Shown: in pieces, positions 62,582 through 63,529 of the stretch
Layout: every line of letters starts with the position of its first letter
Position numbering within the stretch: the first letter of the stretch is position 1
DNA from: a virus
Length of the DNA: 64,000 nucleotides
Direction: 5' to 3' (one strand)
Virus record (IMG/VR): IMGVR_UViG_3300035670_000141
Coordinates: 11,883-75,882 of that record
The notes under the pieces: generated by a model
Database searches by the model: none
What the model was told of the DNA's origin: nothing
Seen by the model: only the letters and a program-made list of their open reading frames with translations
Program-made: the position numbers and the translations under genes

Positions 62582-62818
62582 ATGCCTGAACTTTTCTTTT
62601 TTGCTTGCAAAAAGTCTAACTCTAGCGATAGCGATGGTTATGGCTATGGCTATGGCTATGGCTATGGCTATGGCTATAAATGGGGCGGTGGCGCTGGCTT
62701 TGGTTATGGTTACGGCAATGGCTTTGGATGGGACGATGGCGATGGCTTTGGCTATGGCTTTGGCTATGGTTATGGCGATGGTTATGGCAATGGTTATGGC
62801 TATGGCAATGGTTATTAA
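62582..62818 (+). CDS. Gly-Tyr-rich peptide 1 (MPELFFFACKKSN leader)
   Basis: Unit 1 of a 4-gene tandem array. Confidence 0.65.
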   Translation: MPELFFFACKKSNSSDSDGYGYGYGYGYGYGYKWGGGAGFGYGYGNGFGWDDGDGFGYGFGYGYGDGYGNGYGYGNGY

Positions 62819-62838
62819 CAACAACCTTAGGAGTTTTT

Positions 62839-63063
62839 ATGCCTGAACTTTTCTTTTTAGCTTGCAAAAAGTCTAACTTTAGCCTTGACTATGGCGATGG
62901 CTATGGAGGAGGCTATGGCTATGGATATGGCTGTGGTGATGGCTATGGCTGTGGTTATGGCTATGGCTATGGCTATAGCGATGGATATAGCGATGGATAT
63001 GGCGATGGCAATGGCTATGGCGATGGCGATGGCTATGACGATGACGATGGCTATGGTTATTAA
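62839..63063 (+). CDS. Gly-Tyr-rich peptide 2
   Basis: AGGAG RBS; same leader (one F-to-L change). Confidence 0.7.
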   Translation: MPELFFLACKKSNFSLDYGDGYGGGYGYGYGCGDGYGCGYGYGYGYSDGYSDGYGDGNGYGDGDGYDDDDGYGY

Positions 63064-63083
63064 CAACAACCTTAGGAGTTTTT

Positions 63084-63299
63084 ATGCCTGAACTTTTCTT
63101 TTTTGCTTGCAAAAAGTCTAACTTTAGCGATAGCGATGGTTATGGCGATGGCGATGGCGATGGAGGAGGCTATGGTTATGGCTATGGCGATGGCTATGGC
63201 TATGACGATGGCAATGGCGATGGCGATGGTTATGGCTTTGGCTATGGCTTTGGATGGGGCGATGGTTATGGCTATAGTTGCGGAGGTAATGGATGGTAA
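63084..63299 (+). CDS. Gly-Tyr/Asp-rich peptide 3
   Basis: AGGAG RBS; same leader. Confidence 0.7.
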   Translation: MPELFFFACKKSNFSDSDGYGDGDGDGGGYGYGYGDGYGYDDGNGDGDGYGFGYGFGWGDGYGYSCGGNGW

Positions 63300-63313
63300 C
63301 CCCAAGAGTTTTT

Positions 63314-63529
63314 ATGCCTGAACTTTTCTTTTTTGCTTGCAAAAAGTCTAACTTTAGCCTTGACTATGGCGATGGCTATGGAGGAGGCTATGGCGATGGA
63401 TATGACAATGGCGATGGATATGGCGATGGCGATGGCAATGGCTATGGCTATGGTTATGGCTTTGGCTATGGCTTTGGATGGGGCGATGGTTATGGCTATG
63501 GCTATAGTTGCGGAGGTAATGGATGGTAG
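63314..63529 (+). CDS. Gly-Tyr/Asp-rich peptide 4
   Basis: Same leader; C-terminus shared with peptide 3. Confidence 0.7.
   Translation: MPELFFFACKKSNFSLDYGDGYGGGYGDGYDNGDGYGDGDGNGYGYGYGFGYGFGWGDGYGYGYSCGGNGW

Follow-up and report, generated by a model that had tools for sequence, protein, structure and literature searches.

The 64,000-nt stretch analysed here (the window) covers bases 11883-75882 of a 75,882-bp virus record of IMG/VR (IMGVR_UViG_3300035670_000141) and carries, at 62582-63529, a tandem array of four small genes, each encoding a short near-constant head followed by a (Gly-X)n body rich in Gly-Tyr (GY genes). Judged from sequence comparison, these flagged genes are amplified, relocated, tail-less copies of the second gene of a two-gene phage module, with the head lengthened to MPELFFFACKKSN; the first gene of the module encodes a protein of predicted Sm-like fold, referred to here as the partner. 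We lean towards the view that the GY family derives from this widespread module and that its products are self-associating sticker-spacer chains acting with the Sm-like partner in replication or recombination, the mechanism being the weakest part of the whole statement.

A Two-Gene Module of an Sm-like Partner and a GY Gene

Three further paralogues, of 91, 70 and 96 aa, lie outside the window in the same genome (G000:C1:4736-5549), in a second array located about 7 kb past the flagged one when the record is read across its ends. The first gene of this second array starts 57 nt 3' of the stop codon of the partner gene (105 aa, G000:C1:4361-4678), whose product had no Pfam or PHROG match. Both arrays have exact junction segments of 61-76 nt in common, running from a gene tail through the spacer into the next head, and the seven GY genes are one paralogue family in this phage. 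The least derived of the seven heads is that of the first gene of the second array, MPDLFFFAVKSDG.

The partner family comprises more than 1,900 homologous 90% protein clusters, and relatives of the partner are encoded in at least 343 IMG/VR contigs, of which 80 loci were fetched. A (G-X)≥8 run was found on the partner's strand in 76/80 viral loci; by a stricter test, a chain of GY open reading frames (ORFs) begins directly 3' of the partner in 64/79, with one GY gene in 60 of these loci, two in three and four in one. The same order, partner and then GY, was found in 14 of the 16 loci from prokaryote genome assemblies, which are mostly contigs of metagenome-assembled genomes from varied phyla, none cyanobacterial. 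In 58 distinct members of the family, the distance from the partner stop to the GY start on the same strand is -12 to +72 nt, mostly -12 to 0 with overlap of the genes, and this tight translational coupling suggests a fixed stoichiometry of the two products.

The GY gene of the family has a short head of 5-10 aa, M..F[KR]P[VI]G, and most of the 58 members carry a basic tail, GT[VIP]S..R.R[RK]K. The closest relatives, one of which already has two copies, have GTPSIR.RK as the tail and either MPDSAFLPV or MFDSAFLPV as the head. All seven heads of this phage align with these, the partner-adjacent copy showing MPDLFFFAV where the relative has MPDSAFLPV. The consensus of the copies, MP[ED]LFF[FL]A[CV], aligns with MPDSAFLPV; it differs from the general F[KR]P[VI] motif, and an additional KKSN(F/S)S comes after it. 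The basic tail is absent from all seven copies, which end in ..GY, in ..SCGGNGW or in an acidic/hydrophobic tail of 28 aa. Only the second array adjoins the partner; the flagged array follows a RecE-like exonuclease gene.

The earlier note on this DNA, made from the letters alone, had named a search for the leader across freshwater viromes as a check. DNA-pattern scans of IMG/VR for the leader, both near-exact and codon-degenerate, returned no matches, only the shorter family head could be aligned with it, and blastn of the flagged array against cultured phages gave no matches either; the exact head of the flagged genes seems to be confined to this phage. A tblastn search with the partner against about 50,000 cultured-phage records gave no match for this partner subfamily. 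The only isolate genome with a partner homologue is that of a Novosphingobium sp., where the homologue (L092:2501-2824) probably sits in a prophage and no GY run lies downstream.

No array follows the exonuclease gene in six related phages (RecE-like exonuclease 64-66% identical), and Tandem Repeats Finder detected no such array in three of them. One of these three, read in detail, has a single 175-aa ORF at this place, after which come the reversed small genes and the tail-fibre genes found in this phage too. The flagged array is thus an addition specific to this lineage. The two reversed small genes, one of them membrane-embedded-looking, follow the second GY array in this phage and the 175-aa ORF in related phages, so that about 7 kb here (array 1, DUF6496 protein, basic proteins, Mu F, partner, array 2) stand in place of 0.5 kb in the relatives (L009:7060-8035 vs L002:2264-2718), which indicates a genome rearrangement or a permuted record.

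Between the partner gene and the first GY gene of the second array, a 9-bp GC-rich hairpin and a T-rich run were observed (G000:C1:4697-4718). Most other phages have overlapping genes at this place, and the hairpin may decouple or attenuate expression in this phage.

Predicted Fold of the Partner

AlphaFold2, supplied with a 24-sequence alignment, modelled the partner at a mean predicted local distance difference test (pLDDT) score of 81 as an N-terminal helix and a strongly bent five-strand barrel. In a Foldseek search against BFVD, this model matched an uncultured-phage relative, a protein of Rheinheimera phage barba at E 1e-5, several proteins annotated as DUF6948 (E 4e-4 to 3e-3) and, further down, cyanophage 'Sm-like domain' proteins; against the PDB, almost only Sm, LSm and Hfq chains were found, at E ~4e-3. 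With VIA-align, the Z-scores were 8.5 (Lsm), 8.2 (3by7) and 7.9 (Lsm4), the list included the EDC3 and Tral LSm domains, and nearly all of the top 35 matches were Sm/LSm or Hfq-like. The tool itself rates a Z of about 8 as middling, so that the assignment leans mainly on how uniform the matches are.

For a stored member of the partner family, 28 of 30 Atlas neighbour clusters carry PF22253 (DUF6948) in 16-49% of their members. The PF22253 model itself had no match in the genome at E ≤ 10, nor in 24 partner-family members at E ≤ 1. On these models, the partner is read as a DUF6948-like Sm-fold protein of a divergent sister family and not as a member of the Pfam family.

Organisation of the Flagged Array

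Each flagged ORF has an ATG start and then the head MPELFF(F/L)ACKKSN(F/S)S, followed by a body of GGN-NAT hexamers in which Tandem Repeats Finder reported a period-6 array in all four cases. The four plus-strand ORFs with a near-constant head that had drawn attention to the array were thereby confirmed, the exact DNA identity extending over 40-53 nt. The features, in order, are as follows.

62582-62818, + strand: GY gene 1, 78 aa; head MPELFFFACKKSNSSDSDGY, (Gly-X)n body, C-terminal end GY; without a Shine-Dalgarno-like site 5'; net charge -4, pI 4.1, 37% Gly, 32% aromatic residues
62829-62833, + strand: AGGAG, ribosome-binding-like site 5 nt 5' of the ATG of GY gene 2
62839-63063, + strand: GY gene 2, 74 aa; head variant FSLDYGDGYGGGYG; net charge -11
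63074-63078, + strand: AGGAG site 5 nt 5' of the ATG of GY gene 3
63084-63299, + strand: GY gene 3, 71 aa; gene-1-like head FSDSDGY; net charge -10
63304-63308, + strand: AAGAG, weaker ribosome-binding-like site 5 nt 5' of the ATG of GY gene 4
63314-63529, + strand: GY gene 4, 71 aa; gene-2-like head, gene-3-like tail; net charge -7

The AGGAG spacer, noticed earlier before two of the genes, is indeed found before GY genes 2 and 3; gene 4 has AAGAG and gene 1 neither. Many of these elements recur in the second array. The spacer with the AGGAG of GY gene 2 is found again before GY gene 3 and before the third gene of the second array, and the junction at 63304-63308 also precedes the second gene there. 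The head variant FSLDYGDGYGGGYG is common to GY genes 2 and 4 and the third gene of the second array, the 3' end and spacer of GY gene 2 to GY gene 1 and the second gene of that array, and the 3' part of GY gene 3 (GFGYGFGWGDGY..SCGGNGW) to GY gene 4 and its first gene. Scans of the spacer and leader for RNA structure revealed none (z-scores -0.9 to +1.2), and promoter and terminator scans gave nothing exceeding shuffles.

Downstream of the array, a 49-aa Lys/Pro-rich ORF was observed at 63779-63928, with a perfect 18-nt tandem repeat (2.4 copies, 63791-63834) encoding KPSKPK units.

Mosaic Structure of the Copies

The claim that the cores are mosaics was examined on a map of shared 27-mers and was borne out. 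GY genes 2 and 4 have a 60-nt segment in common that covers the head and the early body (SLDYGDGYGGGYG), GY genes 1 and 3 the SDSDGY head, GY genes 3 and 4 about 80-100 nt at the 3' end, and GY genes 1 and 2 the 3' end and spacer. All four combinations of two head types with two tail types are present in the flagged array, which requires recombination between copies.

The exactly identical DNA is not limited to the head: on the 5' side it takes in the non-coding spacer and part of the gene before it (the 3' end), and on the 3' side it reaches into the body in some pairs, for example GY genes 2 and 4. Identity reaching past the head at both ends suggests recent duplication or gene conversion and not special selection on the leader peptide. 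The apparent contrast between an 'invariant leader' and a 'variable core' is best explained as one between duplicated or gene-converted unique sequence and slippage-prone hexamers. The further suggestion that the bodies are varied by recombination and slippage is likewise supported, by the mosaic copies in this phage and by in-frame length changes in its relatives.

Reading Frame

As (GGCTAT)n is nearly free of stop codons, the repeats leave five of the six frames open, and an open frame alone is no evidence of coding. The Gly-Tyr frame is the one that begins with an ATG preceded, at GY genes 2 and 3, by AGGAG, and it also contains the heads, the tails and, where the two genes overlap, the stop/start junction with the partner. 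In the seven copies, the first codon is GGN in 172/172 hexamers, with a varying third position of the glycine codon; over the whole hexamer, positions 1-2 are always GG, positions 3 and 4 are variable and position 6 is almost always T.

The in-phage pattern being ambiguous, the comparative data decide the frame. The wider family uses mostly GGC-TAC/AAC/GAC, whereas this phage, at 40% G+C, uses GGC-TAT/AAT/GAT, and under this codon change Gly-Tyr/Asn/Asp is preserved while the +1 frame shifts from Ala-Thr to Ala-Met. Downstream of partner genes that are 100% identical, the GY products differ in length (104/100/80, 85/91 and 95/98 aa), and all of them are open with head and tail. Such in-frame length changes in related phages would be as expected from hexamer slippage. 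Based on these comparisons, we conclude that the four flagged ORFs are genuine protein-coding genes in the Gly-Tyr frame.

As a further pointer to the Gly-Tyr frame, metagenomic proteins that are otherwise unrelated carry GY runs joined in frame to DUF7666 or other folded domains. Among these, P0001, P0002, P0012 and P0020 have an N-terminal DUF7666 domain (PF24703), a Gly-Tyr/Asp/Asn run and a short, conserved C-terminal end of the 'NIQKIL' type, and in other small metagenomic proteins a run of this kind goes with another N-terminal domain (..DTGAC.DGV..). Their occurrence on different domains marks GY runs as a recurrent add-on in phage-like proteins.

Properties of the GY Proteins

The seven GY proteins have a net charge of -4 to -12 at a pI of about 4.1 and contain 29-37% Gly and 21-32% Tyr+Phe+Trp. 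In their long (Gly-X) runs, X is Y 62, D 30, F 11, N 10, C 5, H 4 and W 4 times; the counts in the wider family are Y 1114, N 515 and D 490, this phage having more Phe/Trp and almost no Ser/Thr. AlphaFold2 applied to GY gene 4 gave a mean pLDDT of 37 and no secondary structure besides a weak helix in the head (residues 3-11). The proteins thus show the composition of sticker-spacer chains, with Gly/polar spacers, evenly spread aromatic residues and no predicted stable fold.

Pfam and PHROGs searches with the seven GY proteins yielded no match above threshold. Sub-threshold matches to TrAA12-like, keratin head and KRTAP models were of low complexity and were taken as compositional; a homologue search with the longest GY copy gave matches to other proteins that were compositional only, the fusion proteins described above among them.

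Population Data

The stretch is present in three DNA runs of one study, labelled as subsurface metagenomes; RNA runs carrying it are not listed. Variation within the array at the level of reads, which the earlier note had wanted checked, could be followed in part on Logan contigs. Internal pieces of the array match contigs of the three runs with zero differences, and the contigs stop at 62609 and 63499, which are the array edges. In one contig of the third sample (X3), the body of GY gene 3 runs directly into the 3' end of gene 4 and the flank behind it, a weak hint of an allele with a one-unit deletion (three genes) or of an assembly path. A 210-nt joint in a contig of run X1, one side of which measures 26 nt, was not used.

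The summed contig depth over the bodies (62905-63507, runs X1-X4) is in the hundreds to thousands, against about 10 on the flanks. This implies that many other organisms or phages in the metagenomes have near-identical hexamer repeats of the GGCTAT type.

Gene Neighbourhood

Beside the arrays lie genes for a RecE-like exonuclease, a protein with DUF6496, a Mu F-like head protein containing an intein-like insert and the partner of predicted Sm-like fold, and all genes neighbouring the flagged array are on the + strand. The RecE-like exonuclease before the array, as named in the earlier note, was verified by a match to PHROG 412 at E 1e-45, annotated as exonuclease VIII in cultured phages. The neighbour that had been called RecT-like (368 aa, 59826-60932) could not be confirmed as such, with no Pfam or PDB sequence match and only a PHROG of unknown function. 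The host proposed before, Cyanobium or Synechococcus, found no support either: the window has about 40-43% G+C and no NblA match, and the source runs carry the label of subsurface metagenomes.

Across 32 non-redundant related loci, the 127 ORFs flanking the module include recurrent ThyX, Mu F, YqaJ, RecT, ERF, RusA, NinB/G/X, DnaB, primase and PolA families; no maturase, recognition element of ribosomally synthesised and post-translationally modified peptides (RiPPs; RiPP recognition element, RRE), peptidase or transporter was found among them. The statement that no modifying enzyme is adjacent held at both arrays. A leader peptide would have about 20 aa or more; the head has only 13-15 aa, and a double-glycine cleavage motif is absent from it. 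A lipoprotein signal was considered for the head and rejected, there being eight residues before the Cys, an N-region (MPE) without Lys or Arg and a Cys-to-Val change in the first copy of the second array.

Several further genes were observed. The Mu F-like head-morphogenesis gene (Phage_Mu_F, E 2.4e-10; G000:C1, L010:2414-4309, +) contains an intein-like insert with a weak Intein_splicing match, and a 271-aa antisense ORF within this insert (L010:3176-3991, -) shows a helix-turn-helix and a sub-threshold match to the REase_MTES_1575 nuclease. The recombination genes are preceded by genes for a DNA methyltransferase-like protein whose C-terminal domain is DUF4942 (57538-58959; PHROG 32703, E 3e-126) and for an AbrB-like regulator (59147-59680).

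Proposed Mechanism and Alternative Explanations

In this phage, the second gene of the module was amplified, giving three copies after the partner gene and another four after the RecE-like exonuclease gene, with the head lengthened to MPELFFFACKKSN, the basic tail lost and the copies reshuffled between paralogues. In the mechanism that we propose, the products would be intrinsically disordered, self-associating chains of aromatic 'stickers' and glycine 'spacers' that act with the Sm-like partner through a contact made by the conserved head (likeliest) or the tail. They may act in the replication/recombination phase, perhaps building or joining a condensate or fibrillar assembly, and the array could supply dosage and several isoforms. 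The heptapeptide GYGYGYG self-assembles into amyloid-like fibrils (PMC10510724, PMC8163036).

Several points weigh against this proposal. Translation of the GY genes and binding between partner and GY protein are both what we infer, and the formation of a condensate or fibril is put forward by analogy alone. Searches for natural partner-GY fusions revealed only N-terminally extended or duplicated partners. The low pLDDT of the GY protein supports disorder only indirectly, and the substitution pattern of this phage, taken by itself, is equally compatible with an (Ala-Met)n frame, other frames being open as well. Finally, the flagged array lies away from the partner and all seven copies are tail-less, so that the ancestral function may have been lost or changed.

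A more specific version, which we regard as doubtful, has the Sm-like protein as a hub that forms, with the fast-evolving acidic Gly-Tyr protein, a condensate or fibrillar scaffold in early infection, the seven genes being a set of isoforms that tunes the material; such a scaffold could serve to gather RNAs or factors of replication/recombination, or to capture a host factor. It is rather unlikely, in our judgement, that the GY proteins instead are acidic decoys or nucleic-acid mimics that inhibit a host nuclease or defence sensor, comparable to lambda Gam beside exo and bet, with the array providing dosage and variants that track host diversity. All seven proteins are strongly acidic (net -4 to -12, pI 4.1) and their bodies vary quickly, the flagged array comes directly after the RecE-like exonuclease, and in other phages YqaJ, RecT, ERF, RusA and Nin genes are frequently found beside the module. 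Known DNA mimics, however, are folded, with ordered carboxylates, whereas the GY proteins have no predicted fold; moreover, canonical family members carry a basic tail, the constant Sm-like partner would be left unexplained and no defence or anti-defence family was matched, PADLOC not having been run. A role as virion or structural material, with Tyr-rich Gly-X chains packed in or cross-linked onto the particle (head-internal, decoration or fibre), appears improbable: over the 32 loci the neighbours are mostly early replication/recombination genes, the closest relatives share the structural genes but have no such array, and the GY genes have no structural-protein family match. These points stand against the position of the module beside the Mu F-like head-morphogenesis gene in this lineage and near tail-fibre-like genes in this phage, and against the fact that GY peptides form fibrils.

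We consider it just as improbable that the array is a decaying or neutral microsatellite expansion, that is, a set of recent junk duplicates or an assembly artefact. Such an origin would agree with the five open frames, with the breaks of public short-read contigs at 62609 and 63499, with the loss of the family's basic tail from the copies and with the absence of the array from the closest relatives, but ATG, head and stop are kept in one frame in all seven copies, the first two positions of the glycine codon are invariant in 172/172 hexamers while the third varies, length changes across the family stay in frame and pieces of the array recur with zero differences in contigs of three runs. The library of RiPP precursors or effectors suggested by the earlier note, or one of secreted bacteriocins, in which a modifying or export enzyme would recognise the constant leader and the cores would vary, is very improbable. 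It shares with the array the constant head and variable body, the several copies and the Cys/Tyr/Trp-rich cores; yet the constant neighbour, an Sm-like barrel, is neither a maturase nor an RRE, neither beside the two arrays nor among the 127 flanking ORFs of the 32 loci was a maturase, RRE, protease or transporter found, and the 13-aa head, probably descended from a family head of 5-10 aa, has no double-glycine cleavage motif and is unusable as a lipoprotein signal. Hardly credible, finally, is a function of another frame or strand, encoding a hydrophobic (Ala-Met)n chain on the + strand or (His-X)n or (Ile-Ala)n on the - strand. The frames are open, and in the +1 frame the most variable hexamer position would be the synonymous third position of Ala, with ATG invariant. 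Against this, the alternative ORFs start with TTG and have no AGGAG, the GGC-TAC of the wider family turns (Ala-Met) into (Ala-Thr) and keeps Gly-Tyr, the heads, tails and stop/start overlap are in the GY frame and the neighbouring genes are all on the + strand.

Significance and Comparison with Known Systems

Neither gene of the module in this lineage has a Pfam or PHROG family, and the pair is described in no paper that was found; papers on DUF6948, on phage Gly-Tyr repeat proteins or on GYGYGY in phages were likewise not found. If the Sm-like protein and the Gly-Tyr chain work together, they would offer a simple bacterial-virus model of how aromatic/glycine low-complexity proteins are used and evolve, in which slippage, gene amplification and paralogue recombination could be observed, and DUF6948-like proteins would gain a function. 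If the genes are only drifting repeats, they would be a warning that a 'constant leader plus variable core' can come from mutation mechanics alone.

The closest known system is the phage pair of a DUF6948 (PF22253)/Sm-like gene and a (Gly-X)n gene. The second array has the same order, strand and near-zero spacing, and the predicted Sm-like fold of the partner and the Gly-Tyr/Asp/Asn body agree with it; the head aligns with that of the closest relatives and differs from the general family motif. Unlike that pair, the partner here is missed by the PF22253 model, seven copies are present in place of one at most loci, and the flagged array is detached from the partner, with its head lengthened (MPELFFFACKKSN) and the basic tail gone.

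LSm-domain hubs of eukaryotes (EDC3, LSm14, LSm4) bind short motifs in disordered low-complexity partners, and FUS-type domains are built of [G/S]Y[G/S] units. The predicted pairing of an Sm/LSm-fold domain with a disordered Gly/aromatic chain, prion-like in composition, in this phage resembles these systems, whereas there is no sequence homology, the two components are separate genes of a bacterial virus and the chain is acidic and not Arg-rich. The prion-inspired GYGYGYG heptapeptides have the identical alternating Gly-Tyr chemistry, but are synthetic 7-mers, in contrast to phage proteins of 70-96 aa that are rich in Asp/Asn and Phe/Trp and strongly charged; the strong charge may prevent or tune assembly of the phage GY proteins.

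Prochlorosin and cyanobactin precursors form multi-copy arrays of RiPP precursors. They have in common with the present arrays the tandem small genes, the constant N-terminus and the variable remainder, but here no enzyme or transporter is linked, the head is far shorter and has no cleavage motif, and a body of low complexity stands in place of a defined core. In-frame simple-sequence contingency repeats occur in bacterial and phage genes and, like the hexamer repeat described here, change length in frame and so give rise to fast variation in protein length. In the GY genes, by contrast, the repeat makes up nearly the whole protein and not a switch or linker within a folded one, and whole genes were also duplicated and recombined.

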